Below, one piece after another: positions 10,206 through 42,614 of a stretch of 43,755 nucleotides of DNA. The stretch comes from a virus, in UHGV virus genome UHGV-0008389, one strand, 5' to 3'. The notes below the pieces were generated by a model. That model was not told the origin of the DNA. It ran no database searches and worked only from the letters and a program-made list of their open reading frames with translations. The first letter of the stretch is position 1; the number at the start of each line of letters is the position of its first letter. The position numbers were made by a program, and so were the translations under genes.

Positions 10206-10270
10206 GTAATGGCATTATGCCTTGAAAGCAATATGCCATCATTGAATATAAATAGCAATATGCCATCATT
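10206..10270. promoter_or_regulatory. Divergent promoter/operator region of the immI-like module
   Basis: Palindrome GGCATTATGCC (10210-10220) and two direct copies of GCAATATGCCATCATTG (10227-10243, 10254-10270) between divergent arc-like and mnt-like genes. Confidence 0.5.
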
Positions 10271-10290
10271 GTTTTTTTTGAGGTGATGTT

Positions 10291-10611: not shown

Positions 10612-10630
10612 CGGTGGGTTTTCATTTTTA
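10600..10630. terminator. Bidirectional intrinsic terminator between mnt-like gene and tape measure gene
   Basis: CCCACC tgac GGTGGG flanked by A-run upstream and T-run downstream. Confidence 0.65.
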
Positions 10631-10679
10631 CCGTCCGACTTCAGTCAACAGGCACAAACAGAGAAAACGTTACAGGTGA

Positions 10680-12494
10680 CTAAGGCATTGCACTGGAAAA
10701 TGCCGCGTTTGTTGACGCCCGGCTAACTTGCTGATTGACACTTCTGGTAAGAGCATCAACTGTTGTCGGGTTACTGTTAACAACTACCGTGCCAATAGTT
10801 GTACTGCTGCTACGGCTGTTGTCAATTTTTGATGTTGTCTGGCTTGGTGTTGAAGCGATGCGTTGCTGCTGCTGATAGTAAGCCAGCGTCTCGTTTTCTT
10901 TTGCATTAAGAGCGGCGCGAATCTTTGGTACATATTCTCGCGTTTCTTTCGGCAGGGTGTTCCAGTATTTGGATGATGGTGAATCAAACCCGGTACTGGA
11001 TATGTATTTTAACTTTTTGTCTACATTGCCCATCCCCCAGTTGTAAGCCATCAGCGCATGGTTAACATTGCCTTTATAGTGCTTTAGCAAATCCCTCATG
11101 AACCTTTCAGCAGCAGCGCGAGATTTCACTTCATCAAGACGCTCATCAATCCCATCCCCGACCTTTAACCCGTACGCTATGGCAGTATCCTTCATGAACT
11201 GATACGGACCAACGGCACCTTTCGGGCTGTAAAGTTTTTTGCCACCGCTCGATTCCACCTCACGAATGGCATCAAGAAGAGAATCCATGCTTACTGGCTT
11301 TACTCCGTCAGGGAGAGGGATATCTGGCTGAATGTTATTGCCATAAATCTCATCACCCCTACGCCCAAAATCGGTATCAAACCCCATGCTGCGCATGGTA
11401 TCTCCAAGTTCACGCTTAGAGTAATCAAACGATCCTTTAGCTGCCCCCTCAATGTTTTCCCTGTCATTGTAGAGATACAAACCATATGCTATTAACCCTG
11501 CTAACCATGGAGGAAGGGCGCCGCCTGTAAGTTTGCTTCCTACATATGCTGCTGCCAATAGCTTCAGAGCCTCTTCCGCACCACCAACTGCCTTTGTGAA
11601 TTGCTGCGTCATATTCCCGGCGTCATTGAAAAAGCCAATGATGTCGCCATGATGTTTCTCAATCCAGGAACCAAAAGCCTTCATCCCGTCAATAACGTCT
11701 GGAGCGAATGCCATGGCTAAATTTTGCTTTAATCGGGAAAACTCTGAATCAAGTTGCCCAAGAGTGGCAGCAACCTTCTCCTGCTCTTTTACCTGCTGTG
11801 CTGTAATACGGGATTTCTTTGTTTCTGAATCGACAAGCTGCTTAAGTTCCCCTGATTTTATTTTAGCGGCATCTGTCGGATCGAACCCTGCGGCAGCCAT
11901 CACCTGCATCAGGTTTTCTTGAGAATGAGTCTTGCCATAGCGAGAAAACTCAGCAAGAGCCTTGTTTGGGTCGCCGAGCTTATTGATATCTATTCCGGTA
12001 CGAGCTCCAAGAATCAGCAAATTTTGTGCAGCGCCAGTAAGCCCTCCCATAACAGTCGGATCGGCAATATTTGCCAAAGCCATTCTGGCATTCCCAGAAG
12101 ATGAAATGAACGAGTCACCGTTAAGACCAGCCTGGCGAAATCCCCGCTGAACACCAAACATCTTATTAACATCAGAGTCGAAAAACTTGGCCTGTTGGCT
12201 GGCCCTCACAATTTCGTTGGCAGTAGATGTAAAAAGTTGCTTAATTCCATACAACCCGGCGCCAATTCCCAAAAATCCAGCGGCTGCTGTTGTCACGTTG
12301 CGGAAAGCTGAAACAGCGGTTTTACCGAACCTCTCCGTTTCCTGCCGCTGTTTTTCAAGTTCCTTTAGCCTTTCCTTCTCAGCCCTGGAAAGATCTTTGT
12401 TTAATTTACTAACTTCATCTTTTACTTTCCGTTTTCCATTCAGGAATTCATCGGCCTTAATTGTGACCTTGTAGGCCAACTCATTGATAATCAT
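10680..12494 (-). CDS. Tail tape measure protein with C-terminal lytic transglycosylase (SLT) domain
   Basis: 604 aa, long helical N-terminal part; C-terminal motifs EVESSGG ... GAVGPYQFM ... AYNWG typical of SLT domains. Confidence 0.8.
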   Translation of the reverse strand: MIINELAYKVTIKADEFLNGKRKVKDEVSKLNKDLSRAEKERLKELEKQRQETERFGKTAVSAFRNVTTAAAGFLGIGAGLYGIKQLFTSTANEIVRASQQAKFFDSDVNKMFGVQRGFRQAGLNGDSFISSSGNARMALANIADPTVMGGLTGAAQNLLILGARTGIDINKLGDPNKALAEFSRYGKTHSQENLMQVMAAAGFDPTDAAKIKSGELKQLVDSETKKSRITAQQVKEQEKVAATLGQLDSEFSRLKQNLAMAFAPDVIDGMKAFGSWIEKHHGDIIGFFNDAGNMTQQFTKAVGGAEEALKLLAAAYVGSKLTGGALPPWLAGLIAYGLYLYNDRENIEGAAKGSFDYSKRELGDTMRSMGFDTDFGRRGDEIYGNNIQPDIPLPDGVKPVSMDSLLDAIREVESSGGKKLYSPKGAVGPYQFMKDTAIAYGLKVGDGIDERLDEVKSRAAAERFMRDLLKHYKGNVNHALMAYNWGMGNVDKKLKYISSTGFDSPSSKYWNTLPKETREYVPKIRAALNAKENETLAYYQQQQRIASTPSQTTSKIDNSRSSSTTIGTVVVNSNPTTVDALTRSVNQQVSRASTNAAFSSAMP

Positions 12495-12709
12495 CGCTGC
12501 TCCTGATGTTTATTCCAGACCCGATTGTTAAATGATTCCACCGAGATAATTTCCAGAAGGTTATACATATCACGAACAGATAACCGTTCCTGCAAATCGG
12601 TATAAGTGGCTTTTCCTGAACAGATAATGGCGTTCATTGATGGTGTGACGTTTACGGGGCGAACGAGTTTTGCCGGAAGAGTCTCCTCCTCCATGAACGG
12701 GTACTTCAC
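12491..12709 (-). CDS. Hypothetical protein (possible tail assembly chaperone)
   Basis: 72-aa ORF immediately upstream of the tape measure gene. Confidence 0.35.
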   Translation of the reverse strand: MKYPFMEEETLPAKLVRPVNVTPSMNAIICSGKATYTDLQERLSVRDMYNLLEIISVESFNNRVWNKHQEQR

Positions 12710-13113
12710 TCTCCGGCGATCGTTAAAAAATCAAAATTGACTTTAAATACCTTATCCATTACCTGACGAATGGTTGATACCTCTTCAAAGTCGACAGGCT
12801 TCACGGTTCGCACCTGTCTGCTGCCTTCGTGTGTAATCACAATTTGCACAGTTGACATCAGGCGATCACGAAGTTTTCTGGCGACTTCCGGCGATGCAGC
12901 AGAAATAACATTCAGACCAAGGGTGGCAAGGCCAGCGCACCCCATGGCAATAACATCAGCAGGAATACCAGAGAATCCCGATTCCCCCATGGAGCGGAAT
13001 AAATCCTGTGCCAGTTCGTCGGCATCCCATGCCGACATCTCTGTGATAATGAACTCCTTCCCATTGTCGCGATTATCGTCTTCCACGATAAAGGGGATTT
13101 CTTTACGTGCCAT
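12706..13113 (-). CDS. Hypothetical protein (possible tail assembly chaperone)
   Basis: 135 aa, acidic; between the tube and tape measure genes. Confidence 0.4.
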   Translation of the reverse strand: MARKEIPFIVEDDNRDNGKEFIITEMSAWDADELAQDLFRSMGESGFSGIPADVIAMGCAGLATLGLNVISAASPEVARKLRDRLMSTVQIVITHEGSRQVRTVKPVDFEEVSTIRQVMDKVFKVNFDFLTIAGE

Positions 13114-13547
13114 CAGATAGTGCTCCGTGTTACAGACTCAAAGTGAAATACTGCCGGGCGTGGTTGCAGTACGCGCCGACCCGGAGGAGTTGGTGTCCAT
13201 GTATAAAGAACCCCGTTCACAAAATTCCACTTCGCGCCGAGAGCCGGAACTGTAAGCACCGCATTACACTGAAACGCTGAAATTGCAGTTCTCTCTGCTG
13301 CATACCAGTCATCAATCAGCGAGCCAGCATTAGATGTGGGCATCAGGTTGATGGTGAACTCTGTCGGGTTAAAGATAAAACCAGCATGGTATTTACCGTC
13401 CGCTGATATCATGTCTTCTTTGTTCTGTAGTGCGCCAGTTTCAAACATGTTATCAGCTGCGTAGTCGTCAACATCAAAACCGCCAGGGTAGTAAGCGGGT
13501 ACGACGATTCGCAGCTTACTGTTTGCCGAGGTAATATCGATAGGCAT
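13113..13547 (-). CDS. Tail tube protein (tentative)
   Basis: 144 aa; immediately downstream of the sheath-like gene. Confidence 0.5.
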   Translation of the reverse strand: MPIDITSANSKLRIVVPAYYPGGFDVDDYAADNMFETGALQNKEDMISADGKYHAGFIFNPTEFTINLMPTSNAGSLIDDWYAAERTAISAFQCNAVLTVPALGAKWNFVNGVLYTWTPTPPGRRVLQPRPAVFHFESVTRSTI

Positions 13548-13558
13548 GATTTATTCCC

Positions 13559-15049
13559 TTATAAAATCGCGGTTGAGGACATTGTGATGGACTGAATAAG
13601 TTGCCCATCGACATAATAAAAAATGACACCTTTCAGGTCGCGCTCAATGCGTGCAGAGCCTGACTGTGTCGGGATGTACAGGAACCAGCCCTGTGAATAC
13701 AGCGTCGATGAGATATCTTTTCCAACTGTGTTATTCACAATTCTGGTTTGCGCATTATCAAGTTTCACGCCACGCTGAATAGCCCCGAAATTGAGAGCCT
13801 GTTCAGCAACATCAATAACAGCAGCAGAAACTGCGCCGTATCCTGTCTCATTGAACGGGTAAGACTGGTTATTGGTGAACAGGTTGGCAAAAGCACTAAC
13901 CAGATTGGCATTAATCCATACCTGATTAATAAAACTGTCCAGCCATACAAACTTGCCAGTAATGGCACCATCAGATGCGTACTGCGCCATTGTTTTGTTC
14001 AGGCTGTATGAGCCGTAGAAGTTGTAACCGTTTGACTTCAGTGCCTGAGCAGTCGCCAGATCGCTGACGTTGGGTGCTAACCCTGAAAATCCACGGAACT
14101 TGAACGAGATACGCCCATTGGTGCGTGCAAAATCCACGGATGCAGCATATGCCAGTGCTGTAACGCTATACAGGTATGTTCCGTACACCGGAAAAATGTT
14201 CTCGTAGCCATTTGCCACAACCACTTTCTGCACAAAGCAATTGGCATTATTGGCTACCGTTCCTGCTGAAGTGGTGTCGTGAACAACATATCCAAATCGG
14301 TTTTTACTGCTGCTTGCCCATGCGCACAATTCTGTTTTCTGGTCATCGGTCAGTTCGACCAGCGAGTTAAACAGGATCCAGTTCTGGTTGACGTTGATGA
14401 TGTTGTTCATCGTGTCTGTCAGCGTTACCGCATCAGAACCCAGTGATACAATCGCTGCGGAATCCTGCGTCAGTAATAACCCGGCAGCCAGAGCGCCAGC
14501 AGAGGCATAAGACACTTCACTCTCTGCGCCAGTAGTGGCAGAGCGAATGATGAATCGGTTAGCGATTGGCAACCATTCAACCACCACCTTGCTTGCACCA
14601 ATTCCAACCTGCAACTTGGAAGCAATGTCACTAAAACTTGTGGCTGTGGACAAATCAATTGATGTGCTAGTAGTCGACTCACCGTCAATGGAAAGGGTGA
14701 TTGTTCCTGCTGGAATTGCTTTCAGTGTTGCCAGGGAAACACCTTTCAGGTTGCCGGACAGAAGATACCCAGCCACTGGTGAAGTAACAATACGATACAT
14801 CAGCAGTTCACCAGGAATAACGGATGAGTTTTCGTATCCGTTAAAATACTGTTGTGCGGCGAGGAATTCTTTCGATTCACTCCCCATCAAAGCTGATACA
14901 TCAGATGAGGAGTAATAAGATTGTACCGCGCCAACCGGGATAAGCTCGTTATCGGTCAACATCAGGCCGTTAGCATCAACCGCAGAACCGGCAGGCGTAA
15001 CGACATTGGGCGTGATATTAAAATCTACAGATAAAGGGATTGTGCTCAT
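13559..15049 (-). CDS. Tail sheath protein (tentative)
   Basis: 496 aa, similar in length to Mu gpL; position upstream of tube and tape measure genes. Confidence 0.55.
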   Translation of the reverse strand: MSTIPLSVDFNITPNVVTPAGSAVDANGLMLTDNELIPVGAVQSYYSSSDVSALMGSESKEFLAAQQYFNGYENSSVIPGELLMYRIVTSPVAGYLLSGNLKGVSLATLKAIPAGTITLSIDGESTTSTSIDLSTATSFSDIASKLQVGIGASKVVVEWLPIANRFIIRSATTGAESEVSYASAGALAAGLLLTQDSAAIVSLGSDAVTLTDTMNNIINVNQNWILFNSLVELTDDQKTELCAWASSSKNRFGYVVHDTTSAGTVANNANCFVQKVVVANGYENIFPVYGTYLYSVTALAYAASVDFARTNGRISFKFRGFSGLAPNVSDLATAQALKSNGYNFYGSYSLNKTMAQYASDGAITGKFVWLDSFINQVWINANLVSAFANLFTNNQSYPFNETGYGAVSAAVIDVAEQALNFGAIQRGVKLDNAQTRIVNNTVGKDISSTLYSQGWFLYIPTQSGSARIERDLKGVIFYYVDGQLIQSITMSSTAIL

Positions 15050-15594
15050 GGGCGGTTATCCACCTGTTCAGTTGAAATTTCTGCTTTGTCGAAATAGTCC
15101 TGCTGGAACGACACTGTGATGTGTGCTTGCAGGGAAAGAGTTAACGTGTAACGCTCCTGCCACTGACTCTCGGCGTTGATCATCGGCGCCTGAATGGCAG
15201 GAGATGAGTAAAGCGGCGCAAGCCGTGCATCAATAGCCTTGATGATGTCGTAGCCATATCCACTGGTGAATGTTGTTTCCAGTGCAATAGCTCTATCTCC
15301 TGCCCCCTGACCATAGATATCTACCTGAATATCAGCCTGGCGAACTTCCGTATATCCCATGGTGCTTGTGTCCGGAGAGCCGGTATCTTGCTTAAGCTCT
15401 CTCGTCGTGGATAGTCTGGTGAATCGCAAAGGGGTCAGGATACAGAACTGATCTTTGGGCATTGGTACACGGTTAGCCTGAGCCTGCAGGCATTTACCAG
15501 CGATAGGTTCTATGTAGCCAGCAAGTACATCGATAATATTATCGACAGTGAAATCATTCATGGGCTTACCTGCAATACAGCAATCAGCCGGCAC
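15046..15594 (-). CDS. Hypothetical virion protein
   Basis: 182-aa ORF in the late operon between head and tail modules. Confidence 0.4.
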   Translation of the reverse strand: MPADCCIAGKPMNDFTVDNIIDVLAGYIEPIAGKCLQAQANRVPMPKDQFCILTPLRFTRLSTTRELKQDTGSPDTSTMGYTEVRQADIQVDIYGQGAGDRAIALETTFTSGYGYDIIKAIDARLAPLYSSPAIQAPMINAESQWQERYTLTLSLQAHITVSFQQDYFDKAEISTEQVDNRP

Positions 15595-15935
15595 CAGTCA
15601 GGCCACAACTCTATTGGCTCAACAACAAGCCATTGTTCCCCGTTAATCACGAAGATATCTCCGCCCTGCTCCAGTTCTCGCTGCACACTGAAGTAATTAC
15701 CATTGACGTAAATCACTTTTGCCAGCCCCTGAATATTCAATCCATCGACGTGTTGCATGTCGCCGCGACTGATTGGCTGTAGTTGAATGGTAACGTTCTG
15801 GTCAGGGAGATAAGACGGAATCGGCTTGCGACCGGGGCCGATAGTTTCACCTGCATACTTTTTCAGGATTGCCGGGATGTTGGGGTTAATGCTTGTGATC
15901 GCGTTATTGGCTATCTGTCGAAGATTCAATTTCAC
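15558..15935 (-). CDS. Hypothetical virion protein
   Basis: 125-aa ORF in the late operon. Confidence 0.4.
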   Translation of the reverse strand: MKLNLRQIANNAITSINPNIPAILKKYAGETIGPGRKPIPSYLPDQNVTIQLQPISRGDMQHVDGLNIQGLAKVIYVNGNYFSVQRELEQGGDIFVINGEQWLVVEPIELWPDWCRLIAVLQVSP

Positions 15936-16470
15936 CTACCTCATAATCAACAGCCCTTAACATGTCCCCGGTCCATATGAGAGGCTTGTTGTTGCTCATA
16001 TCAACATCAACCTTTTTCACCGGACCGAAATAGCCCGGACCACCAAAAACATCTTCTCTGGCCTTCACTACATCCCACTTAGTCATTTCCGCCCTGTTAT
16101 TAGGGAATCTACTTCTTAGAAGTACTGTTACCGGGCTTAATGGCGGCTCTTGAATAGTTCGAATGGATTCCTGGATGTCTGCTTTTATGATCTCGCCGAT
16201 AAGATTCAGAACAGTATCCGTATCTCCGTCATGCGATTTCATGAGCTTTTCGACCTTTTCTGACCACTCTTCAGATTTAGAAGCTATAGCATTCCTGAAG
16301 AATGGCCTTGGCGGACTTCCACTTGCCGGGTTACCAAATTCGTTAGATGCTGCAACCATTGGCATAGAAGTACCATCTGGATAGGTGGCATCTTCAAGAA
16401 ACCCGACCTTCAATTGCTTTGAGGACAACTCACTACCAACTGAATCAAGGAACTCCATCACCTTATCCAT
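15904..16470 (-). CDS. Virion morphogenesis / head-tail joining protein (tentative)
   Basis: 188-aa ORF, position after the capsid genes. Confidence 0.4.
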   Translation of the reverse strand: MDKVMEFLDSVGSELSSKQLKVGFLEDATYPDGTSMPMVAASNEFGNPASGSPPRPFFRNAIASKSEEWSEKVEKLMKSHDGDTDTVLNLIGEIIKADIQESIRTIQEPPLSPVTVLLRSRFPNNRAEMTKWDVVKAREDVFGGPGYFGPVKKVDVDMSNNKPLIWTGDMLRAVDYEVGEIESSTDSQ

Positions 16471-16901
16471 CAGTACCTCCGGTAATACCCATACGGGTAA
16501 TTTGATGGAGAATGCCCGCTTATATACTGGAAGGTGCGAAACGGCGCCGTAGCATTCCAGTAATCAGCCCCGTACTTTGTTTGCATGTACCATGCTGAAT
16601 TTGCTGTTCCCCCTGGCATATCGGCATGAACGCTAACCGAACCCTCTGAAGCACTGTCGATTCTTCCAACCAATCCGGATGGAGACTGCCCATTCGCTCC
16701 TGAATACAAACAGGCGATATGGGCAACCAGCATATTCAGCAGCATTGAGCGTACAGCCAAATCCGACACGCGACTTGAGTCTGTGTTATCGAGATAAATG
16801 GTTGCTTGCGTGAAATACTGCTGAAGAAGTGCGTCGTCGACAGATGAGAATTCAGGATAGCGTAGCTTAAATGCGGAGGGGTCAAATATTACGACGCCCA
16901 T
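16470..16901 (-). CDS. Head-tail connector-like protein (tentative)
   Basis: 143-aa ORF coupled to neighbouring genes. Confidence 0.4.
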
Positions 16902-16913
16902 TTGCTGCTCCCG

Positions 16914-17261
16914 CTATTTTTCGTCAGCCTTTTTTACGCCCGGAGCCGGATTTTCCGGGTCAAGGCCTTCGAGGCCAGTTTTTGATTCTTTCAGATCTTT
17001 ACCCTGCGCATTCAGACTGAGAATATCTTTCTGAATGAAGATTGCATTATTCTGAATATACGCGGCATCCTTATAGGTCTCGATGAACTTATCCATGAAG
17101 TCTTTCTCGACCATGGTAACTCCGAAAGCCCCCTCAGGAATTGCACCATCAAGACCACGGAGGGCGGTTGTTGCCGCCCCGTTCAGGATTACTGTTTTGC
17201 CATCCAGAGTTACCTGAAGGCCATTTGGCAATTTGCAGCCAACGCTTACCATTTCTGCCAT
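16914..17261 (-). CDS. Hypothetical head-associated protein
   Basis: 115-aa ORF directly downstream of the major capsid gene. Confidence 0.4.
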   Translation of the reverse strand: MAEMVSVGCKLPNGLQVTLDGKTVILNGAATTALRGLDGAIPEGAFGVTMVEKDFMDKFIETYKDAAYIQNNAIFIQKDILSLNAQGKDLKESKTGLEGLDPENPAPGVKKADEK

Positions 17262-17264
17262 GAA

Positions 17265-18305
17265 TTAAACTCCCAACATGCTTGCAAATGCCAGCGGCTG
17301 GCGAATGATTGCGCCCCAGGTGCCACCGGTTTTCTTTTGTTTGTACGCGGACAGGTCAACAACAACCGGATGCGCACGCATTTTTTCGGTAAATGCGCAG
17401 TAGCCGGTGTCCTGACCATCCAAATCGTCGGCGATCAACTGAACCAGTTCGCCGGATTCGGTTTTGTACTCGACAGCAGTAACAACGCGCAGGTTCGGGA
17501 AGTTTTTCTTCAGCTGATCAGACACGTTGACGTTGTACATGTTGGTCTTGGTCAGATTTGCTTCTGACTCTGGACTCATCGCCAGCGTCATCTTGCTGTC
17601 CCGCTCAACGTACCCCTTGGTCTGCTTCACTAACTGCATGTAAAGCGCCTGGATATCGTCATACACCGCCTGACCGTCTTTAGTTGCCCAGGTAGTTCCG
17701 CTGCCGGTACCCGTTGCGCCAGGAGTGATTGATGCCGGAAGGTTAGGGTCATTCAGAATGCCGTAGTTCTTCAGGCCAGCAACGCCGAAGAAGTAGGACT
17801 TGTTCTGGAACTTATTCAGGGTCAGCGCAGAAGCCGTATTCAGTTGTTGAGCCCATGCAATGCGGCCTTCACCGTAACGGTCAAGTTCCAGCTCACCCCA
17901 CTGAGTAATGGTCTGGTACAGATAGGACTCACGAGCAACCCAGTTGACGTTAGCGTTTACCTGCCCATTATTGTTGTAGTCACCATAACTGGAAACCTGA
18001 CCTGTTGATTCCACAACCGGGAATTGTGCGGTCATGGTGGTCCAGTCTCCCTTCTTCGTTTCCCCCAGAATTTCCACCGCTTTCATCGGAGTGACAAGGA
18101 TACGAATCAGTTCCGGGTCAACGTAATTAGTGAAGTACCATGGAATGCCTGAGTTACTGGTTGTTACCAGTGAAGGCTGAGAGTCCATTGCATAGGAATA
18201 GCTATTAGCAACAGCATCCGTCAGATAGGCTTTGGCTTCCGGAAGGATTACACCGTAATCTCGCTCAGCCATAGCTTTATGTTGTAAAAATTCTGCGTTA
18301 TTCAT
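17265..18305 (-). CDS. Major capsid protein
   Basis: 346 aa; follows scaffold/protease and decoration-like genes in canonical head-module order. Confidence 0.7.
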
Positions 18306-18308
18306 GTA

Positions 18309-18788
18309 TTAGCTCCAGGTGCCCATCTGAATCAACTCGCCAGCCTCGCCAGCACTGCCAACGACAAATTTTGTTTCAACGTAATCCGAAATTGACGCCC
18401 CGGCATCGCCAGCGGTAATAGTTCCATCTGACAGTTTGGCGAAAATCTTCTGCCCTACGGTTGCTGCACCGGCAGTTTTCACCCAGTAGTCACCAGCAGT
18501 CATCAATGTCATCTGAACTCCAGGCTGAATAGTCATAGATGATTCACCAAGCCATGTGGTGACAGACGCCTGCCCTTCCCGATGAACGAAACCGGCAGGA
18601 GCACCGGTTCCAGTGTTATTGGCAACACCATTGCTTACCCATGCAAAGCGACCAACAACAACCCCATTTGCACCGGCAACAAGAGCGCCCTCCCCAGCAA
18701 GAAGACTTGCTTTAGGGTTAGCCGAAGCGAAATCGCCTTCAACTCCCGGCGCCTGTTGCTGATTAATTACACTTTGAAAGCCACTCAT
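18309..18788 (-). CDS. Head decoration/structural protein (tentative DUF2190-like)
   Basis: 159 aa, Gly/Ala-rich; between scaffold/protease and major capsid genes. Confidence 0.5.
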   Translation of the reverse strand: MSGFQSVINQQQAPGVEGDFASANPKASLLAGEGALVAGANGVVVGRFAWVSNGVANNTGTGAPAGFVHREGQASVTTWLGESSMTIQPGVQMTLMTAGDYWVKTAGAATVGQKIFAKLSDGTITAGDAGASISDYVETKFVVGSAGEAGELIQMGTWS

Positions 18789-18791
18789 TTC

Positions 18792-20018
18792 TTAGCTCCG
18801 TTTCAGTTTAGTTGCGCCAGGAAATGCCTTGGCGAAAGAATTGGTTGCGGCAGCATCCATACCCAGACCATGAGATGGTTTTCGAACTACCGCTTTCTGG
18901 CTGATAGCAAATTCAACCATCGATTTAAGTGCTGAAGGATGAACGCCTTTATGTTCGGCACCGATTGAATCAAGAGCAAAGCGATAAATAGACTCTGCGG
19001 AATCCATAGCGACCAGACTCACATCACCAACCAAAGCACGAACACATTCTCGAGCCTCATTGGCTTGACGGATACGCCCCATCACATTCTCTTCAGCTTT
19101 TCGAATCAATGCGGCATCCATAGCTGCTTTATTCTCATCATCGTCTTCATCCTCGGCAGTCTTTTTATCCTTGCCGTCATCATTTTCGTCTTCCGCTTCT
19201 TTGCGGTCACGATCGCGATCCTTTCGCTCACGTTCTTCACGCTCTTTTAGTTCATCCTCTTCACGTTTCAGACGCTCTGCTTCTGACTCATTATCTCTCT
19301 CAGCCTGAGTGGCTTCGTCTTCAACAACCTTTTGCACTTTCTTTTCCACTTCTTCTGGCTTCTCATCACTGGCCAGCATCGGCGTGATAACTGCCATCAA
19401 CTTTTTAGTAAGTTCTGACATTGATTTCATTCCTGTTGGTATTGAATCCCCGACAACAACGTCGGATCCGGCTCTTCCCTCTGTTACGAGAGCAACGTGG
19501 TTCCCGACGATATCGCGCATTACACCATCGTATGGCTGGCCTTCATGCACGCCGGGGGTCATGTCAGCTACATATCTGTAGGCCGACGAAAGTTCTTTCT
19601 TCTCGTTTGTCTCGATTCCAGCGATAGAATCCGCATCCCATACGACAAGCGAGTTCTTGAGATAAGTCCCGTCAAACTCAGCATCAGTACCAGTAGAACC
19701 AACCACAGCCATCTTCTGAGGGTCTGAAGCAGTAACCGGGATGTGTTCGTTAAGGAGCGGGATGTTGTTGAATGTAGATGCTGCTTTGGCTAACTCTTTC
19801 GGGTCACGAAGCAGGTAGTAAACTTTGTCAGGCTGTAAACCTAGCGATCTGTAATTAGGGATTTCACGTCCATAATAAGGGCAAACGTTAGCCTTACTGA
19901 TTGGCGTCACTTCTATATGCAAACGCCCATCCTTATCAAAGGAGCGCACCGTTGCCTTATCGAATGCCAATCCGTGATATCCCCATTGCCAGCCGCCTTT
20001 AACTTTGCGTAATGGCAT
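18792..20018 (-). CDS. Putative prohead scaffold/protease protein (tentative DUF2213-like)
   Basis: 408 aa with a central highly charged low-complexity segment ([54 protein letters not shown]); position between the F-like and capsid genes. Confidence 0.5.
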
Positions 20019-35577: not shown

Positions 35578-36294
<717 letters not shown>

Positions 36295-36409: not shown

Positions 36410-37414
36410 ATGAATACTATTGAAAATAATGATGTTTATGTGTATATAGGCGATATTCATCGTGATGGTTATCTTGATCTAACCAATAAAATCAAGAAGC
36501 GTAAGTCACAAAATGAATTAAAAAAGAATGTTATCTTCTGTGTTGCTACTTATGGCGGTGATCCTAATGCTGGTTATCGTATAGGTAGGGCTCTCCAGCA
36601 CTATTATGAAACGGTAACACTTTTAGTTGTTGGGCCGTGCAAAAGTGCTGGTACACTAATAGCCATAGCTGCGAATAAACTTGTTATCGGTGACATGGGT
36701 GAGCTCGGGCCATTAGATATCCAACTGAAAAAAAACGATGAAATAGGTGAGATGAGTTCTGGTTTAGCCATTATGACAGCTCTCGATGCACTGAAGGAGC
36801 GCTCTATTTCAGCGTTTAACTCATACCTTGTTCAGATAAAATACGAAAACCAGATAAGCACTAAAATATCTGCTGACATCGCAACCAGACTTACAGAGGC
36901 ATTGATAGCCCCCATGGCTGCTCAGATAGATCCAATAAAACTTGGTGAGCATCAGCGTGCGATGAGCATTGCTATCACTTATGGTCAACGGTTAGCAGAC
37001 AAGCCAAGTAGTCTAAAAGAAGGGGCGTTAAGCAAACTCATCGCTTCGTATCCTTCACATGGATTTGTTATCGACAGAAAAGAAGCCAAGGAACTTTTCA
37101 AGTGTGTTGAATGTCCTAAAGGTATAACAGAAATACTCGATAATTTTTTCTGTGATAAGATTCATAGTGGTGAAATCCCAACGTTTGGAAAACCAAGGGT
37201 GATGGATTTCCCTCTTACTACACAAGATAAAGAGGACAATACTAATGCCGAAGAATCTGCAACCGGAGATGGAAATTCTCAACAAAATGTTGGAAAGCCA
37301 GATCCAAGAAAGTCGCAATCTGGCAAGAAAAGCGGAACAGCACCTGAACGAGATCAAAAAAGAACTGGAGCCGTATCAATTCAACCACCAGATGAACAGC
37401 AACCTAATGCGTGA
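36410..37414 (+). CDS. ClpP/SppA-fold serine protease-like protein occupying the rexA/rexB slot downstream of cI
   Basis: 334 aa, AT-rich; GGAG-type RBS; VIFCVATYGGDPNAGYRIGRAL and VVGPCKSAGTLIAIAA fit the ClpP/S49 pattern (GG..AG..I; G-x-[AC]-x-S-x-G around a candidate nucleophilic Ser); about 70-aa hydrophilic C-terminal tail; same strand and operon position as rexAB in lambda; terminator at 37445-37470. Confidence 0.65.
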   Translation: MNTIENNDVYVYIGDIHRDGYLDLTNKIKKRKSQNELKKNVIFCVATYGGDPNAGYRIGRALQHYYETVTLLVVGPCKSAGTLIAIAANKLVIGDMGELGPLDIQLKKNDEIGEMSSGLAIMTALDALKERSISAFNSYLVQIKYENQISTKISADIATRLTEALIAPMAAQIDPIKLGEHQRAMSIAITYGQRLADKPSSLKEGALSKLIASYPSHGFVIDRKEAKELFKCVECPKGITEILDNFFCDKIHSGEIPTFGKPRVMDFPLTTQDKEDNTNAEESATGDGNSQQNVGKPDPRKSQSGKKSGTAPERDQKRTGAVSIQPPDEQQPNA

Positions 37415-37430
37415 TCTCTTTGCTCTGTAA
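37245..37430 (+). CDS. Possible overlapping small ORF (61 aa, predicted helical) in alternate frame at the 3' end of the protease gene
   Basis: ATG at 37245 preceded by AGAGGA about 9 nt upstream; product MPKNLQPEMEILNKMLESQIQESRNLARKAEQHLNEIKKELEPY... looks helical, while the in-frame protease tail is low-complexity; stop 14 nt before the terminator. Confidence 0.25.
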   Translation: MPKNLQPEMEILNKMLESQIQESRNLARKAEQHLNEIKKELEPYQFNHQMNSNLMRDLFAL

Positions 37431-37444
37431 TTAATTCCTCACAT

Positions 37445-37470
37445 CCCGGCCTCAGCGCCGGGTTTTCTTT
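37445..37470 (+). terminator. Intrinsic terminator ending the cI-protease (immunity) transcript (tIMM-equivalent)
   Basis: CCCGGC ctcagc GCCGGG followed by TTTTCTTT. Confidence 0.7.
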
Positions 37471-37626
37471 GCCTCACGATCGCCCCACCTAAAAACACAT
37501 AACCAATTGTATTTATTTGAAAATTAATAGATACAACTCACTAAACATCACAATTCAGATCTCCCGATCACCTTCCCAATCCACACACCCCTGCAAAAAA
37601 TAAATCTATATAAAAAACATACAGAT

Positions 37627-37696
37627 AACCATCTGCGGTGATGAATTATCTCTGGCGGTGTTGACACGCATACCACTAGCGGTGATACTAAACACA
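37627..37696 (+). promoter_or_regulatory. OL: Left operator OL3-OL2-OL1 and promoter PL
   Basis: AACCATCTGCGGTGATG (OL3), TATCTCTGGCGGTGTTG (OL2), TTGACA -35, TACCACTAGCGGTGATA (OL1), GATACT -10; near-identical to lambda OL/PL as recalled. Confidence 0.9.
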
Positions 37697-37734
37697 TCAG
37701 CAGGACGCTGGAAGCCAAACGGAACAGATTGGCA

Positions 37735-37775
37735 GGCTCTTTAACATTGATGGGATTGTCCCGCCGAAATGCGGG
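37735..37775 (+). promoter_or_regulatory. nutL: nutL-like site (boxA plus boxB hairpin)
   Basis: boxA-like GCTCTTTAACA (37736-37746) followed by hairpin CCCGC cgaaat GCGGG (37760-37775) downstream of PL. Confidence 0.55.
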
Positions 37776-37947
37776 AACCAAAGAGTAGTTGGCTTTGGGG
37801 TGTGGTGAAGGGTTCATGGACGGGAATATGTCGCACGTAAAGCGGCGAGGCCTGCGGGACTATTGCCGAATTGAAGTCGGACGAAGCGGGTCGAAATGGG
37901 TCTCCCACCTACCACACCACCAAAGCTAATCATCTGAGGAACAGAAA

Positions 37948-38067
37948 ATGTTAGACATCATGACCAACCCAATTCTCGGTGGTTTAGTTACCACATTCGC
38001 CATCTGCTTCGGTTTCACTATCTGGTCTGAAGTAGATGACTGGATGTGGGAACGCAAAAACAAATAA
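37948..38067 (+). CDS. Small hydrophobic ORF (39 aa, single predicted TM) between nutL and N
   Basis: ATG at 37948 preceded by GAGGA; product MLDIMTNPILGGLVTTFAICFGFTIWSEVDDWMWERKNK; below the 60-aa cutoff of the supplied ORF track. Confidence 0.35.
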   Translation: MLDIMTNPILGGLVTTFAICFGFTIWSEVDDWMWERKNK

Positions 38068-38107
38068 TCATCGACACACAAGGATGTGTACCTTCCCGGA
38101 GGTCAAC

Positions 38108-38407
38108 ATGACAGTAGTCATTACATATCTTGCTGACGATAACGCCAGAAATCGCCGCAGAGCACGCAGACAGGCTCAACGTGAACAGGCAATGCAAGAG
38201 CAGCGACTGGCGCGAAAAATTGCGCTAAAGCTCTCTGGTTGCGTCAGAGCAGATAAAGCAGCATCACTCGGAAGCCTTCGCTGCAAGAAGGCAGAAGAAG
38301 TCGAGAGTAAACAGAATCGTATTTACTACCGCAAGCCACGCAGTGAAATGGGTGTGACTTGTGTTGGTCGCCAGAAAATGAAATTAGGCAGCAAACCACT
38401 TATTTGA
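38108..38407 (+). CDS. N: N-like antitermination protein
   Basis: Arg-rich motif DDNARNRRRARRQAQREQAM and C-terminus YRKPRSEMGVTCVGRQKMKLGSKPLI resembling the lambda N C-terminus; GGAGG RBS before the ATG at 38108; first PL-operon gene after nutL. Confidence 0.75.
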   Translation: MTVVITYLADDNARNRRRARRQAQREQAMQEQRLARKIALKLSGCVRADKAASLGSLRCKKAEEVESKQNRIYYRKPRSEMGVTCVGRQKMKLGSKPLI

Positions 38408-38467
38408 GGTGAGATATGGAAGCTAAGGCCGAATAGTCTGCCTTTATTTTTGGCATAAACAACAGAG

Positions 38468-38734
38468 GTGAATATGACCGTAGAAAGAATGAAAAGGCCG
38501 TGGAGTGTTATTGGCACTGGATTCAACGATGATGGTGTTTATGTCACGTTTGACGATACAACCATACATCGTGGTGATTTGAGATTGATGGAGGCAGCTC
38601 CTGATTTGCTTGAAGCTCTGCAAGCGATGCTAAACAAGGCATACAAGCAAAGCTGGAATGACCATTATCCTGATGAAGTATCGAAAGCACTGTCAGCAAT
38701 TAGCAAAGCTATTGGTGAAGATTATTACGATTGA
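38468..38734 (+). CDS. Hypothetical early protein
   Basis: 88-aa ORF with GAGGTGA RBS; in the PL operon between N and cIII. Confidence 0.5.
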   Translation: MNMTVERMKRPWSVIGTGFNDDGVYVTFDDTTIHRGDLRLMEAAPDLLEALQAMLNKAYKQSWNDHYPDEVSKALSAISKAIGEDYYD

Positions 38735-39009
38735 GGTTAATGATGAAGTTCAAATTGAACGATGAAGTTAAATGGTCAAGCTCATCAAACGGTGTAACGA
38801 AGGTAAAAATCGGGTTTATCGTCGAGGTGATTCCTCCTGGTGTCAACGTAAAAAAATTCGAACTAGGCCGTCTGCTAGATGCACCTGGCCTTCCGAGGAA
38901 AGAAGAGAGCTATATAGTTTGTGTAGGTCCAAGACCCGGATCTCGTGCCAAGCCAAAATATTACTGGCCGCGAGTTAATAACCTGCGTCGCTTACACGAT
39001 GACAAATAG
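38731..39009 (+). CDS. Hypothetical early protein
   Basis: 92-aa ORF coupled to the upstream gene. Confidence 0.45.
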   Translation: MRLMMKFKLNDEVKWSSSSNGVTKVKIGFIVEVIPPGVNVKKFELGRLLDAPGLPRKEESYIVCVGPRPGSRAKPKYYWPRVNNLRRLHDDK

Positions 39010-39135
39010 AAAGTGAGTATCCTTGTTTTACTTTTTCGCGGCAAACCACTTATTTGAGGTGATATATGGAAGAAGAATTTGAAGAGTTCGAAGAGCATCC
39101 TCAGGATGTGATGGAACAATACCAGGACTATCCGT

Positions 39136-39336
39136 ATGACTACGACTATTGATAAAAATCAATGGTGTGGACAATTCAAGCGATGCAATGGATGCAAGCT
39201 GCAATCGGAATGCATGGTTAAGCCTGAAGAAATGTTTCCTGTAATGGAAGATGGGAAATATGTCGATAAATGGGCAATACGAACGACGGCAATGATTGCC
39301 AGAGAACTTGGTAAACAGAATAACAAGGCTGCCTGA
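39136..39336 (+). CDS. Hypothetical small Cys-rich protein (possible zinc-binding)
   Basis: 66 aa with CGQFKRCNGCKLQSEC (four Cys). Confidence 0.45.
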   Translation: MTTTIDKNQWCGQFKRCNGCKLQSECMVKPEEMFPVMEDGKYVDKWAIRTTAMIARELGKQNNKAA

Positions 39337-39363
39337 TGGTGGCCTTTATTTTTAAGGTGCTAT

Positions 39364-39606
39364 ATGAAAATTAAAACTATGGGCGCAAGCCCATTAAGCG
39401 GTCGTATTTTTCAAGGAACATTAAACACTGAAAAAGGGATGTGGGTAGGAAAGAAAGAAGATGTCACCGAACAAGCGATTAAGGCAGTAACTGAACACCT
39501 GATGATAAAAGACCGGAAATATGCATACGAAACGAATGATGGCAAATGGGTGATAATAATGCATCAACTGGTTGATGAATTACCAGAAGAGTTTATTGCT
39601 GATTAA
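39364..39606 (+). CDS. Hypothetical early protein
   Basis: 80-aa ORF in the PL operon. Confidence 0.45.
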   Translation: MKIKTMGASPLSGRIFQGTLNTEKGMWVGKKEDVTEQAIKAVTEHLMIKDRKYAYETNDGKWVIIMHQLVDELPEEFIAD

Positions 39607-39637
39607 AATTATTTTTGCATAAACAACAGAGGTGAAT

Positions 39638-39772
39638 ATGAACGCAGTTGAATTTACAAAATGGATGGCAGAGCAAGATATCACAGGAGCCGACGAAAAG
39701 GCTGTGTACTACATGGCTATGCTATGGATTCACAAAGCAAAAGAGATTGCAAATGCTCTTGGAGGTGAGTGA
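39638..39772 (+). CDS. Hypothetical small protein (44 aa)
   Basis: ATG at 39638 preceded by the same GAGGTGAATATG linker as the gene at 38468; stop overlaps the next start (TGATG). Confidence 0.35.
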   Translation: MNAVEFTKWMAEQDITGADEKAVYYMAMLWIHKAKEIANALGGE

Positions 39773-39957
39773 TGTGCGAGTTTTATGAAGCAGATATCAA
39801 ACGCCCAGAAATGGCAAGTGATGCGACATTACGTGATTACTTCGCAGCAAAGTTCATGCAGGGAGTTTGTGCAAATCCAGACAGGCTTTATGACAACGAA
39901 GCACTTGCTAAAGAAGCTTATGCGATGGCAGACGCAATGCTCAAAGCTCGCGAATAA
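39769..39957 (+). CDS. Hypothetical early protein
   Basis: 62-aa ORF coupled to the upstream small ORF. Confidence 0.4.
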   Translation: MMCEFYEADIKRPEMASDATLRDYFAAKFMQGVCANPDRLYDNEALAKEAYAMADAMLKARE

Positions 39958-40091
39958 GCACTGTGTATTCATTCTAACGAGTGAATACACGGAGCAATGT
40001 CGCTCGTAACTAAACAGGAGCCGACTTGTTCTGATTATTGGAAATCTTCTTTGCCCTCTAATGTGAGGGCAATTTTTTTGATGGAGGAATT

Positions 40092-40508
40092 ATGGAAATT
40101 ACAGATATTCTGGTTAATCCAGATAATTACGACCAATTCAATATCTCTACTCAATCAGTTGATTTGGGTTGTGCAACTGTCAGCGCATGGCTACTTAATG
40201 GTGAACAGTTGGATAAATGCCTTGATGCACATATGACGGTTAACAGCTTCCTTGCAGAAAAAACACACTGGCAAGATGCTGGAGGGGAATATGCTGGATG
40301 GCTTGAAAGCATGGGATTTGAATATCAATCTGATGAAGGTTGGTGGAGCCTTATAGCTGTAACGCCTGAGACAATAGAATGCTTCGTTAAATACTCAAAC
40401 GACGATGACTATAAACACCAGGTAGATTCTGCGATAGAAAGATATAAAAGAAAATCATTCAGCCACGAAATATCATCAGTTCTTGATTTCATAGAAGTCT
40501 TCAAATAA
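40092..40508 (+). CDS. Hypothetical acidic protein
   Basis: 138 aa, net acidic, Trp-rich (WQDAGGEYAGWLESMGFEYQSDEGWW); early-left region. Confidence 0.5.
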   Translation: MEITDILVNPDNYDQFNISTQSVDLGCATVSAWLLNGEQLDKCLDAHMTVNSFLAEKTHWQDAGGEYAGWLESMGFEYQSDEGWWSLIAVTPETIECFVKYSNDDDYKHQVDSAIERYKRKSFSHEISSVLDFIEVFK

Positions 40509-40589
40509 GCCGCCTGAGCGCGGCTTTACCGCATACCAATAACGCTTCACTCGAGGCGTTTTTCGTTATGTATAAATAAGGAGCACACC

Positions 40590-40730
40590 ATGCAATATGC
40601 CATTGCAGGGTGGCCTGTTGCTGGCTGCCCTTCCGAATCTTTACTTGAACGAATCACCCGTAAATTACGTGACGGATGGAAACGCCTTATCGACATACTT
40701 AATCAGCCAGGAGTCCCAAAAAATGGATAA
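40590..40730 (+). CDS. cIII: cIII (C-terminally shortened relative to lambda)
   Basis: MQYAIAGWPVAGCPSESLLERITRKLRDGWKRLIDILNQPGVPKNG matches lambda CIII as recalled, but ends 8 residues early; GGAG RBS. Confidence 0.85.
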   Translation: MQYAIAGWPVAGCPSESLLERITRKLRDGWKRLIDILNQPGVPKNG

Positions 40731-40836
40731 AACACTTATGGCTATCCAGACTAAATTCACTATCGCCGCTTTTATTGGCGATGAAAAGATGTTTCGTGAG
40801 GCCGTCGAAGCCTACAGAAAATGGAGGTCAAAATGA
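40723..40836 (+). CDS. kil: Kil-like protein (truncated)
   Basis: MDKTLMAIQTKFTIAAFIGDEKMFREAVEAYRKW matches the lambda Kil N-terminal region as recalled; ends after 37 aa at a junction with non-lambda sequence. Confidence 0.65.
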   Translation: MDKTLMAIQTKFTIAAFIGDEKMFREAVEAYRKWRSK

Positions 40837-41021
40837 TTCCGGTAGAACTGGCGAAAACTCCAGAGTTAAGTCGATTAAAAAGAGAATATCACATTGCTGA
40901 GGCTCGTTACTGGCGTAAAGCGGGAGATAAATCAAAGAAACAACTTTGCTTATGGCAGGCACAAAGAGAGCGCATGAATGAGCGTGAGTTTCTTTCCTCC
41001 CCATCCGAATTACCATTCTGA
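40833..41021 (+). CDS. Hypothetical protein
   Basis: ATG at 40833 with GGAGG RBS; 62 aa; coupled to the Sak4-like gene. Confidence 0.4.
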   Translation: MIPVELAKTPELSRLKREYHIAEARYWRKAGDKSKKQLCLWQAQRERMNEREFLSSPSELPF

Positions 41022-41029
41022 GGCAAATT

Positions 41030-41710
41030 ATGGGAACTGCGACATTAATACTCGGTGAATCTGGCACCGGAAAATCAACCAGCATGAGAAATATCAATCC
41101 AGAGGAAGCAATACTTATAAAACCAATAGGCAAGCCGCTTCCATTTAAATCAAAAGACTGGCTGGCATGGGATGCCAGAGCAAAAAAAGGAACCGTAGTT
41201 ACCACTGACAAATGGGACGTAATAGTTGCCGTAATTAAGCGTGCTCACGAATACGGGAAAAGAATCGTTATTGTTGATGACTTCCAGTATGTGATGAGCA
41301 ATGAGTTTATGCGCCGCTCAGAAGAAAAATCGTTTGATAAATTCACTGAGATAGGCCGCCACGCATGGGAGGTGATTAAGGCTGCACAGGATGCACCTGA
41401 TGACCTGAGAGTCTATTTTCTTGCGCACACCGAAGAAACCCCTATGGGGCGTGTGAAAATGAAGACTATCGGCAAAATGCTGGACGAGAAAATCACTGTC
41501 GAAGGCATGTTTACTATAGTTCTTCGCACCCTTACCCGCGATGACCAGTTCTTTTTCACCACGAAAAACAACGGTGCAGACACTGTTAAATCCCCAATGG
41601 GAATGTTTGATTCTAATGAGATTGATAACGATCTCTCTTTCGTCGATGCCACTGTTTGTGATTACTACGGCATCAATAATGTTCATCAAATTAAGGAAAA
41701 CGCCGCATGA
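41030..41710 (+). CDS. Sak4-like RecA-core ATPase (AAA_24 family) of a recombination module
   Basis: 226 aa; Walker A LGESGTGKST; Walker B-like IVIVDDFQ; followed by an SSB-like gene. Confidence 0.75.
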   Translation: MGTATLILGESGTGKSTSMRNINPEEAILIKPIGKPLPFKSKDWLAWDARAKKGTVVTTDKWDVIVAVIKRAHEYGKRIVIVDDFQYVMSNEFMRRSEEKSFDKFTEIGRHAWEVIKAAQDAPDDLRVYFLAHTEETPMGRVKMKTIGKMLDEKITVEGMFTIVLRTLTRDDQFFFTTKNNGADTVKSPMGMFDSNEIDNDLSFVDATVCDYYGINNVHQIKENAA

Positions 41711-42294
41711 GCAACGTGATTTTTACTTATAACGAAGAAGCAGCACTGACCGCAGGGCAAGGTGGTTTTATTAACGAAACTGGTGCTCATATCATTACCA
41801 TTACTGAAGCAGAACTAAAGCAATCAGAAAAAGGAGCCAAATTTATTGAGTTTTCTGGCGAATCTGACGACGGACGTAAAATCCAATATCTTAGCGTCTG
41901 TGTTCAGAAAAATGACGGAACGGAAAACAAATTTGGCGCAAATGTCGTTCACGCCATGATGGGGTGTGCCGGGATTGGACAATTAACGCAACATATGGTT
42001 TCCGCCAGTAAATTTGTTGCTCCTGAGTTTCATGGAAAGAAAATCGGGTTAGTGCTCCAGAAAGTATTAACCACAAACAAAAAGACTGGCGCAGACAGCT
42101 ACCAGATGGAAATACGCATCCCGTTTATTGCACAAACAGGTCAAACCCTTAAAGAAAAGGCGGAAGGCAAGCAACCAGAAACTATCGCCAACATGGTTGC
42201 CAGCCTCAAAGATAAAGACAATCGCTCTAAAAACGTAAGCCAGAATCATGCAGATGATTATGGTTACAGCCAGAACGATTACCCTCCTTTCTGA
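41707..42294 (+). CDS. DUF669-like ssDNA-binding protein with SSB-type acidic C-terminal tail
   Basis: 195 aa; C-terminal DDYGYSQNDYPPF resembles the SSB tail (D-D-D-I-P-F type); coupled to the Sak4-like gene. Confidence 0.55.
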   Translation: MSNVIFTYNEEAALTAGQGGFINETGAHIITITEAELKQSEKGAKFIEFSGESDDGRKIQYLSVCVQKNDGTENKFGANVVHAMMGCAGIGQLTQHMVSASKFVAPEFHGKKIGLVLQKVLTTNKKTGADSYQMEIRIPFIAQTGQTLKEKAEGKQPETIANMVASLKDKDNRSKNVSQNHADDYGYSQNDYPPF

Positions 42295-42317
42295 TTATTG
42301 AAAATAAGGCTCCCATT

Positions 42318-42614
42318 ATGCCAGCGCCTCTGTATGGTGCGGATGACCCGCGCAATTGCTCCGGTAGCTCCAAGGCGGAGGTGCTGGAAAATATCAAAAA
42401 CAATTTCGACGCGTTTCTTGCTCTGACACCAGAAACAAAAGCAGAACGGATGTACCGACGCGATATACAACTCGCGCTAAAACAGGAGAAGGACCGAACA
42501 AACGAAACAGCAATGAGACCGTTGCGAAAAGCGACAATAGACAAATTCCCTGAATATATCGACCCGCGCCTGCGTAATTACCGATCACGCTATGGCGCTA
42601 TCAGTAATGACTGA
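42318..42614 (+). CDS. Hypothetical protein
   Basis: 98-aa ORF in the early-left operon. Confidence 0.45.

Follow-up and report, generated by a model that had tools for sequence, protein, structure and literature searches.

A probable hypervariable PL accessory region of small-gene cassettes around ral, between N and cIII of the virus genome UHGV-0008389

The window analysed here is the whole 43,755-nucleotide (nt) stretch of the UHGV virus genome UHGV-0008389, and the element in question is a block of seven small plus-strand open reading frames (ORF1 to ORF7) at positions 38468–40508, between the antiterminator gene N (38108–38407) and cIII (40590–40730). We consider it likely that the interval 38408–40589 is a hypervariable PL accessory region, in which mobile cassettes of one or two genes have been recombined into a lambda-like backbone. 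The backbone pieces (the 3' end of N, orf28-ral with its terminator, PreS with tL2a, and the cIII leader) are 96–100% identical to lambda, and the linkers joining the cassettes carry a ribosome-binding site (RBS), the tail of a terminator or the final N codons. One of the seven frames, ORF3, is the lambda restriction alleviation protein Ral. The source DNA is a mosaic lambdoid phage or prophage, and taken as a whole the block combines known cassettes in a new way at a known hotspot. Its features and junctions, with isoelectric points (pI) and E-values, are as follows.

38388–38473, plus strand: junction 1, with the 3' end of N, an RBS, the MEAKAE relic (38416–38436), a terminator-like hairpin with GCCTTTATTTTT and the linker GGCATAAACAACAGAGGTGAAT (repeats D2, D12 and D1).
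38474–38734, plus strand: ORF1, 86 amino acids, acidic, pI 4.7; phrog_1273, E = 4.8e-18.
38740–39009, plus strand: ORF2, 89 amino acids, basic, pI 10.0; phrog_11941, E = 5.3e-46.
39038–39065, plus strand: junction 2, with the non-coding relic of the N 3' end GCGGCAAACCACTTATTTGA and the RBS of orf28 (repeat D2).
39066–39152, plus strand: orf28, 28 amino acids, net charge −12, overlapping the start of ral; assigned by identity to lambda.
39136–39336, plus strand: ral (ORF3), restriction alleviation protein; PF11058, phrog_1055 and identity to lambda.
39325–39353, plus strand: terminator-like hairpin after ral; found by the terminator scan as a 9-bp stem followed by TATTTTT, conserved with lambda.
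39364–39606, plus strand: ORF4, 80 amino acids, DUF7446; PF24233 and phrog_1578.
39612–39637, plus strand: junction 3, with the second linker copy TTTTGCATAAACAACAGAGGTGAAT (repeat D1, 92% identical to 38448–38483).
39638–39772, plus strand: ORF5, 44 amino acids; phrog_24660, E = 2.2e-33.
39772–39957, plus strand: ORF6, 61 amino acids, acidic, a widespread small phage domain; C-terminus of phrog_2201 and others, E = 6e-15.
39958–40079, plus strand: PreS/LPR1-like small RNA (sRNA) region ending at tL2a; identity to the lambda ral–ea10 intergenic region, terminator scan and fold.
40092–40508, plus strand: ORF7, 138 amino acids, pI 4.28, net charge −16, five Trp residues, in the ea10 slot; phrog_8967, E = 3.3e-86.

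The mosaic character of the block becomes evident when its gene order is compared with that of the lambda PL operon, which reads N, sieB (opposite strand), orf28, ral, terminator, PreS/tL2a, ea10 and cIII. Here N is followed by ORF1 and ORF2, then by orf28, ral and the terminator, by ORF4, ORF5 and ORF6, by PreS/tL2a, and finally by ORF7 and cIII. The position, the N and cIII flanks with the thermoregulator, the identical orf28 and Ral proteins, the near-identical PreS/tL2a segment and the ral terminator are thus shared with lambda, whereas ORF1 and ORF2 occupy the slot of the opposite-strand sieB, three extra genes (ORF4 to ORF6) are inserted into the spacer between ral and PreS, and ORF7 precisely replaces ea10. 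The first-pass annotation had assigned the block to the ral/sieB-equivalent position of the PL operon, and this placement is correct, the slot being the one in which lambda carries sieB, orf28, ral and ea10. The gene sieB, which lambda and the P22-like phage SE16 carry on the opposite strand according to their annotations, is itself absent between N and ral, where a minus-strand frame of about 180–190 amino acids was looked for; the longest minus-strand ORF in 38400–39100 has 66 amino acids, and none of the minus-strand ORFs gave a SieB match or any other full PHROG match.

Cassettes and backbone meet at short sequences, several of which occur twice. The last codons of N together with GAGGTGAnATATGGAAG are found at 38388–38422 and again at 39038–39072 (repeat D2, 94% identical), the tail of the ral terminator, GCCTTTATTTTT, is present at 38440 as well as at 39342, and TTTTGGCATAAACAACAGAGGTGAATATG stands ahead of both ORF1 and ORF5. 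The segment 38440–38466, which lies after N in this genome, is 96% identical to the lambda sequence just 3' of ral, and the six-codon MEAKAE relic at 38416–38436 occupies the place of an 87-amino-acid gene in the E. coli EC28 prophage. The linker with the N tail was recovered in 17 of the 43 fetched loci, where either orf28 or an unrelated gene follows it, and also lies between ORF2 and orf28 in Cronobacter prophages.

Comparison with other loci revealed the same pattern of conserved flanks and exchanged content. ORF7 is carried by 27 IMG/VR loci, which were found by a scan of viral contigs with the close ORF7 alignment, and where these match by megablast the match always runs from PreS (~39958) into cIII. 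Across 25 ORF7-bearing loci from IMG/VR and E. coli prophages at least 12 gene sets lie between N and ORF7, with N-orf28-ral-ORF7 at one end of the range and sets that include unrelated genes of 207 or 121 amino acids at the other, and the cassette count of the present genome is the highest among these 25. N and the PreS-ORF7-cIII segment are conserved as flanks, the content between them differs, and ral is present. At most about 50% of 38400–40600 is contiguous in any phage isolate or complete E. coli genome, and an identical arrangement was found neither there nor in IMG/VR, whose contig L016 (43,765 nt) differs. Single cassettes recur at 85–99% DNA identity in Shigella phage Sf101 and in the E. 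coli or Cronobacter lambdoid prophages EC28, 2020N21-110 and GCA_048159205, each covering no more than about 50% of the block: Sf101 shares the N-orf28-ral-ORF1-like-ORF6-like cassettes and EC28 the ORF1-ORF6-like-ORF7 cassettes. Cronobacter prophages share N-ORF2-orf28-ral but differ in carrying other cassettes such as DUF7685 and DUF7167. In two of them (L040, L041; 3687–6493) nine small genes lie between N and cIII, namely an ORF2 homologue, Ral, DUF7685, DUF7167 and five genes without a family; this array is comparable to the block described here in length, or even longer.

A region of this kind has been described before. The ral-containing accessory region of enterobacterial phages holds counter-defence genes, and among the other genes of the ral region orf184 acts as the trigger of an abortive-infection system (Silas et al., bioRxiv 10.1101/2023.04.06.535777); in the same work 200 accessory genes were tested in wild E. 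coli. That region resembles ours in its variable small genes between conserved flanks, and the tested set includes orf87 (a Ral identical to ORF3), orf123 and orf57. In contrast, the peptides of ORF2, ORF4, ORF5 and ORF7 were not found in its gene table, and its orf184 is absent here. A literature search on an anti-defence hotspot at cIII returned nothing relevant.

The presence of seven small ORFs between N and cIII, as proposed in the first-pass annotation, was borne out by their coordinates, ribosome-binding sites and PHROG matches. The starts of ORF1 (38474), ORF2 (38740), ORF5 (39638) and ORF6 (39772) were moved to a nearby ATG behind a Shine-Dalgarno sequence, those of ORF3, ORF4 and ORF7 were left unchanged, and an RBS is found ahead of every ATG. 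The ORFs were searched against Pfam, NCBIfam, PADLOC, PHROG and PDB sequences; all seven gave full-length PHROG matches, and amino-acid-level homologues of each were found in other genera. As a control, nine antisense or alternative-frame ORFs of the block (53–79 amino acids) were treated likewise, of which eight had no PHROG match and one a partial match across a conserved linker. The latter, a 66-amino-acid antisense ORF (38326–38526, minus strand) covering the N 3' end and the linker, aligns by residues 35–61 to positions 2–28 of the 86 of phrog_37739 (E = 6.5e-12), a family that probably includes ORFs mis-called over the conserved linker in other genomes. Because ribosome-binding sites and PHROG families are present for the seven ORFs and the alternative frames are without such families, we regard the seven as real genes and not as chance frames. 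It is very improbable that some of them are non-functional, either as chance ORFs or as remnants decaying in a recombination hotspot. Relics do occur in the region (the MEAKAE frame and the non-coding copy of the N tail), ORF5 has just 44 amino acids, and the antisense ORF shows that a partial family match can arise over a linker; against this stand the full-length matches (E from 6e-15 to 3e-86), the ribosome-binding sites and the conserved homologues in other genera for all seven, together with the lack of PHROG families in the alternative frames.

The central cassette of the backbone is that of lambda itself. ORF3 matches PF11058 over positions 1–66 of 66 (E = 1.6e-48, 162.5 bits, cut-off 25) and the PHROG family phrog_1055, 'restriction alleviation ral' (E = 1.7e-49), and 66 of its 66 residues are identical to lambda Ral. 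The preceding orf28 is likewise identical to its lambda counterpart (28 of 28 residues), and the DNA of 39041–39353 is 98% identical to lambda orf28-ral. The earlier statement that the block has no recognisable lambda counterparts is therefore wrong for ORF3, for which the four cysteines noted at that time were confirmed by count. Its description as uncharacterised still applies to the other six ORFs, but not to Ral, nor to the orf28 gene and the PreS sRNA alongside; orf28 (39066–39152), the PreS/tL2a element and the hairpins after N and ral had been overlooked inside 38468–40508. According to Loenen and Murray (1986, as cited in PMC12373910), Ral alleviates restriction by stimulating type IA restriction-modification enzymes to methylate DNA that is still unmodified. 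Given the 100% protein identity, alleviation of type IA restriction is expected of the Ral encoded here.

The gap of 135 nt between ORF6 and ORF7 is filled by a segment (39958–40078) that is 96.7% identical to the lambda ral–ea10 intergenic region. In lambda this region encodes LPR1/PreS, an Hfq-dependent sRNA of about 88 and 68 nt between ral and ea10, with its 3' end at tL2a, which is expressed in the lytic cycle and activates translation of host dnaN, raising DnaN (bioRxiv 10.1101/2024.10.31.621285). The 88-nt form corresponds to about 39992–40079, where the terminator scan located the tL2a hairpin (40051–40072) followed by TTTTTTT. The segment folds more stably than shuffled controls (z = −7.8) and is kept in 27 of 27 matching ORF7-bearing IMG/VR loci. 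An Rfam scan of 37400–41100 returned the cIII thermoregulator only, and the PreS segment was without a family at E up to 1. Judged by its similarity to lambda, 39958–40079 corresponds to PreS/LPR1 with tL2a.

The remaining cassettes differ considerably in their distribution. ORF1 shares 98% identity with a hypothetical protein from the EC28 prophage and, at the DNA level, 93% with gp34 of Sf101. Homologues of ORF2 fall into 31 clusters, exclusively from Enterobacterales; in Cronobacter and E. coli prophages they always lie between N and ral or DUF7446, directly or one gene past N, and the gene is absent from 50,697 phage isolate genomes. Profile searches with ORF2 gave weak Tudor/KOW hints only. 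The stop codon of ORF5 overlaps the start of ORF6 (TGATG), the two are translationally coupled, and ORF5 shares its slot, 5' linker and 3' junction with an ORF1-like gene of Sf101 and EC28. Homologues of ORF6 occur in temperate phages of Enterobacterales, Burkholderia, Pseudomonas and Rhizobium.

ORF4 belongs to DUF7446 (PF24233, E = 2.7e-26, 91.6 bits, cut-off 24.1; phrog_1578, E = 2.3e-37), which was matched by all 25 aligned ORF4 homologues. The gene follows ral in P22-like phages, as it does directly in the present genome, and homologues with about 48% identity are encoded by virulent Kuttervirus phages. A literature search on DUF7446 returned no papers. A weak match to the PADLOC DndE model PDLC02671 was found for ORF4 (E = 0.0069, residues 17–67 against positions 53–105 of 111) and for 17 of the 25 relatives (best E = 4e-4, about 15–19 bits). 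This match, together with the location directly after ral here and in P22-like phages, would fit a DndE-like protein that interferes with or exploits the phosphorothioate (Dnd) modification-restriction of the host, as a second modification-targeting function beside ral. However, since the family members are closely related the 17 matches amount to one weak observation, no member matched Pfam DndE at E up to 1, and a search of the PDB with the family profile found no DndE structure, so that we regard a DndE-like role of ORF4 as quite improbable.

ORF7 is the acidic, Trp-rich protein of 138 amino acids that had been singled out at 40092–40508, and its charge, pI and tryptophan content agree with that description. 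A word-index search yielded 10 close clusters of homologues, and a profile search of 1.84 billion representatives (E up to 1e-3) extended the family to 62 clusters at 50% identity, from lambdoid prophages, rV5-like virulent phages and unrelated metagenomic phages. The alignment contains nine invariant or near-invariant residues (N12, D62, Y67, L71, G83, W84, W85, A89 and F98) and the conserved motifs DWGGxYAxWL and GWWSxxAVxPxNIxxF, and the net charge is below −5 in 45 of the 49 family members. Among cultured phages homologues were found in rV5-like virulent myoviruses (Vequintavirinae) only (64–67% identity; 115 records, a few of them labelled Campylobacter phage), where they lie within long arrays of small hypothetical early genes; the distant relatives are located in early regions of unrelated metagenomic phages, beside RecT/YqaJ, AAA_24 or DnaB genes. 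An AlphaFold2 model based on the 49-sequence alignment (mean predicted local distance difference test score, pLDDT, 96.3; predicted template modelling score 0.88) is a helical domain with two small hairpins and supersedes a first model from a nine-sequence alignment (pLDDT 64.6). A fold search with the newer model returned no neighbour, and a Pfam search of the family members gave nothing meaningful.

Two relationships were tried for ORF7 and ruled out. It is not a diverged Ea10, to which BLASTP gave just 11.5 bits (E = 5), and it is not a relative of the trigger gene orf184, which is likewise acidic, Trp-containing and located in the ral region (hhalign probability 1.4%). ORF7 may recall Ocr, ArdA and lambda Gam in being small, strongly acidic, early and located in the operon region of ral; neither a B-form-DNA-like fold nor similarity to a solved structure of the DNA mimics Ocr and ArdA was found.

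Both flanks of the block, and the signals from which it would be transcribed, were identified by comparison with lambda, HK620 and Sf101.

37661–37689, plus strand: PL-like promoter, TTGACA-17-GATACT, promoter scan score 10/12, just 5' of 37695–37810.
37735–37776, plus strand: putative nutL equivalent, its position transferred by homology from the HK620 nutL annotation (L003 2555–2596).
38108–38407, plus strand: N antiterminator, 99 amino acids, arginine-rich N-terminus, pI 10.8; DNA identity to HK620 and Sf101.
40509–40568, plus strand: terminator-like hairpins 5' of cIII, tL2b-like; scan match at 40541–40560, 96.8% identical to lambda.
40577–40730, plus strand: cIII thermoregulator RNA and cIII (46 amino acids); Rfam RF01804 and translation.

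The segment 37695–37810 is 98% identical to the pL/nutL region of HK620 (L003 2515–2630), and it is through this alignment that nutL is tentatively placed. Over 38097–38299 N is 99% identical to HK620 N, and over 38327–38422 it matches the end of Sf101 N with 99% identity. On the other side, RF01804 was matched at 40577–40635 (88.5 bits, E = 1.7e-21) with the RNA element intact, the segment with the end of ea10, cIII and kil is 96.8% identical to lambda DNA, and HK620 carries tL2A and tL2B annotations in the region homologous to 40509–40568. With the HK620/Sf101 identity of N and the Rfam match and lambda identity of cIII, both flanks are confirmed and the block thus sits between N and cIII. 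The coding sequence of cIII (40590–40730) is shortened to 46 amino acids; the HK620 annotation records the same shortening relative to similar proteins, from an internal stop codon.

The surroundings are lambdoid too, with a lambda-type cI at 35581–36294 and the PL operon on the plus strand, but N is of the HK620/phage 21 type and the recombination module is Sak4/SSB/Abc2, where lambda has Red/Gam. Downstream of the block, kil is followed by this HK620-type module (41030–42614, plus strand), consisting of a Sak4-like AAA_24 ATPase, an SSB-like protein of 195 amino acids without a Pfam match and the anti-RecBCD protein Abc2 (PF11043, E = 1.5e-35); lambda gam, bet and exo gave no match in the compared part, 37400–41100. 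HK620 lacks a segment of about 290 nt that is found here between nutL and N and that contains a hydrophobic ORF of 39 amino acids (37948–38067, plus strand; MLDIMTNPILGGLVTTFAICFGFTIWSEVDDWMWERKNK). This ORF has a full-length match to phrog_7482 (E = 8e-25) and probably encodes a small membrane peptide, the first product of the PL transcript. Directly 3' of cI, in the place of lambda rexA/rexB, an ORF of 334 amino acids (36410–37414, plus strand) shows sub-threshold matches to ClpP-like serine proteases (SDH_protease, E = 3.7e-6; CLP_protease; NfeD1b_N) and no PADLOC match. It is a candidate for a prophage-expressed defence or exclusion gene; the slot 3' of cI holds different genes in other prophages, e.g. 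a P63C domain protein, DUF1828 and BstA_C. At the other end of the window, at most 16% of 1–20000 is covered by any cultured phage, the best being a Vibrio phage with 70% identity over 12708–15887; this little similarity indicates a structural module poorly represented among isolates.

The PL/nutL/N antitermination scheme is the established model for lambda. Transferred to this genome, all genes of the block would be transcribed from PL (37661–37689), and N, loaded at nutL, would read through the hairpins that follow N and ral and through the one at tL2a; with such N-dependent readthrough of terminators the block genes would therefore be delayed-early and expressed in lytic growth only, not in the lysogen. 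Judged by their sequence patterns, the repeated linkers may provide the homology through which co-infecting phages or resident prophages exchange cassettes. As to the products, the six proteins other than Ral have negative grand average of hydropathy values and no Pfam enzymatic domain, which points to small soluble proteins, and our working guess is that they may be small stoichiometric binders of host or rival-element proteins, acting in host takeover or counter-defence. Several points weigh against this picture. Both the dependence on N and the restriction of expression to lytic growth are borrowed from lambda, linker recombination is read from sequence patterns, the binder role is a guess, and PreS would have to pair with the host's dnaN leader in order to act. 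Furthermore, the profile and structure searches proposed in the first-pass annotation identified Ral and DUF7446, but neither PADLOC, Pfam, NCBIfam, PDB-sequence nor fold searches tied any of the other six to an anti-defence or exclusion protein. Silas et al. included the Sf101 homologues of ORF1 (orf123, gp34) and ORF6 (orf57) in their screen, and neither appears among the hits named there, which is weak negative evidence for the two phenotypes measured.

For the function of the six proteins two broad readings compete, each of which we hold possible but doubtful. According to one, at least one of ORF1, ORF2, ORF4, ORF5, ORF6 and ORF7 is a dedicated anti-defence or superinfection-exclusion factor, as had been suggested originally, and would work as an inhibitor or, in a prophage, as an excluder, on the lambda examples of Ral and SieB; according to the other, they tune host physiology or phage DNA metabolism (replication, recombination, division, lysis-lysogeny) in the manner of Kil, cIII and PreS. 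A dedicated factor is favoured by the location in the accessory region of ral, which in lambda also includes sieB, by the fast turnover of gene content between N and ORF7, by the occurrence of ORF4 and ORF7 in small-early-gene arrays of virulent phages of the same hosts, by the consistently acidic ORF7 family and by the strict association of ORF2 with its position. It lacks any similarity to a PADLOC or other known anti-defence family or to a solved structure, and the screen results for the ORF1 and ORF6 homologues speak against it. In particular, genes placed behind terminators in the PL transcript are unlikely to serve prophage exclusion of the sieB type; lambda sieB has its own promoter on the opposite strand. 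A physiological role would be in keeping with the known functions of the neighbours (PreS on dnaN; cIII, kil and the Sak4/SSB/Abc2 module just downstream), with the RecT/YqaJ, AAA_24 and DnaB genes beside distant ORF7 relatives, and with the basic ORF2, whose faint Tudor/KOW-like hints are compatible with nucleic-acid binding. However, these genes are dispensable, in that many close relatives are without them, domain evidence for a physiological role is lacking, and the context of the distant ORF7 relatives is merely 'early region', which is also home to anti-defence genes. Confident matches to housekeeping phage functions were not found for any of the six in the family, PDB or fold searches. 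The earlier observation is thus partly confirmed and its interpretation partly supported, the place being right and the anti-defence idea plausible.

ORF7 stands out among the six as the best candidate, given its acidity, its compact helical fold, the invariance of its aromatic patch and its exchange with virulent phages. It is conceivable, although rather unlikely, that ORF7 founds a hitherto undescribed early family with a new fold, whose aromatic surface or pocket would neutralise a host defence or nuclease component or sequester a small-molecule signal, and which would have displaced ea10 beside ral and PreS in this lineage.

The accessory-region reading, in which known cassettes have been recombined around a lambda-like backbone, corrects the annotation of a block flagged as wholly unknown, which contains lambda Ral, orf28 and the recently described PreS. 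The proposed cassette swapping at short conserved linkers would help to define the boundaries of accessory regions and to choose genes for screening. The experimental short list comprises ORF7, ORF2 (bound to its position and not in cultured phages) and ORF4 (beside ral, with a weak DndE lead). With its confident model, its lack of a fold neighbour and its exchange between temperate and virulent coliphages, ORF7 is the sole element likely to surprise a specialist, and lambdoid biology would stay unchanged unless one of the six proteins proves to have a new target.

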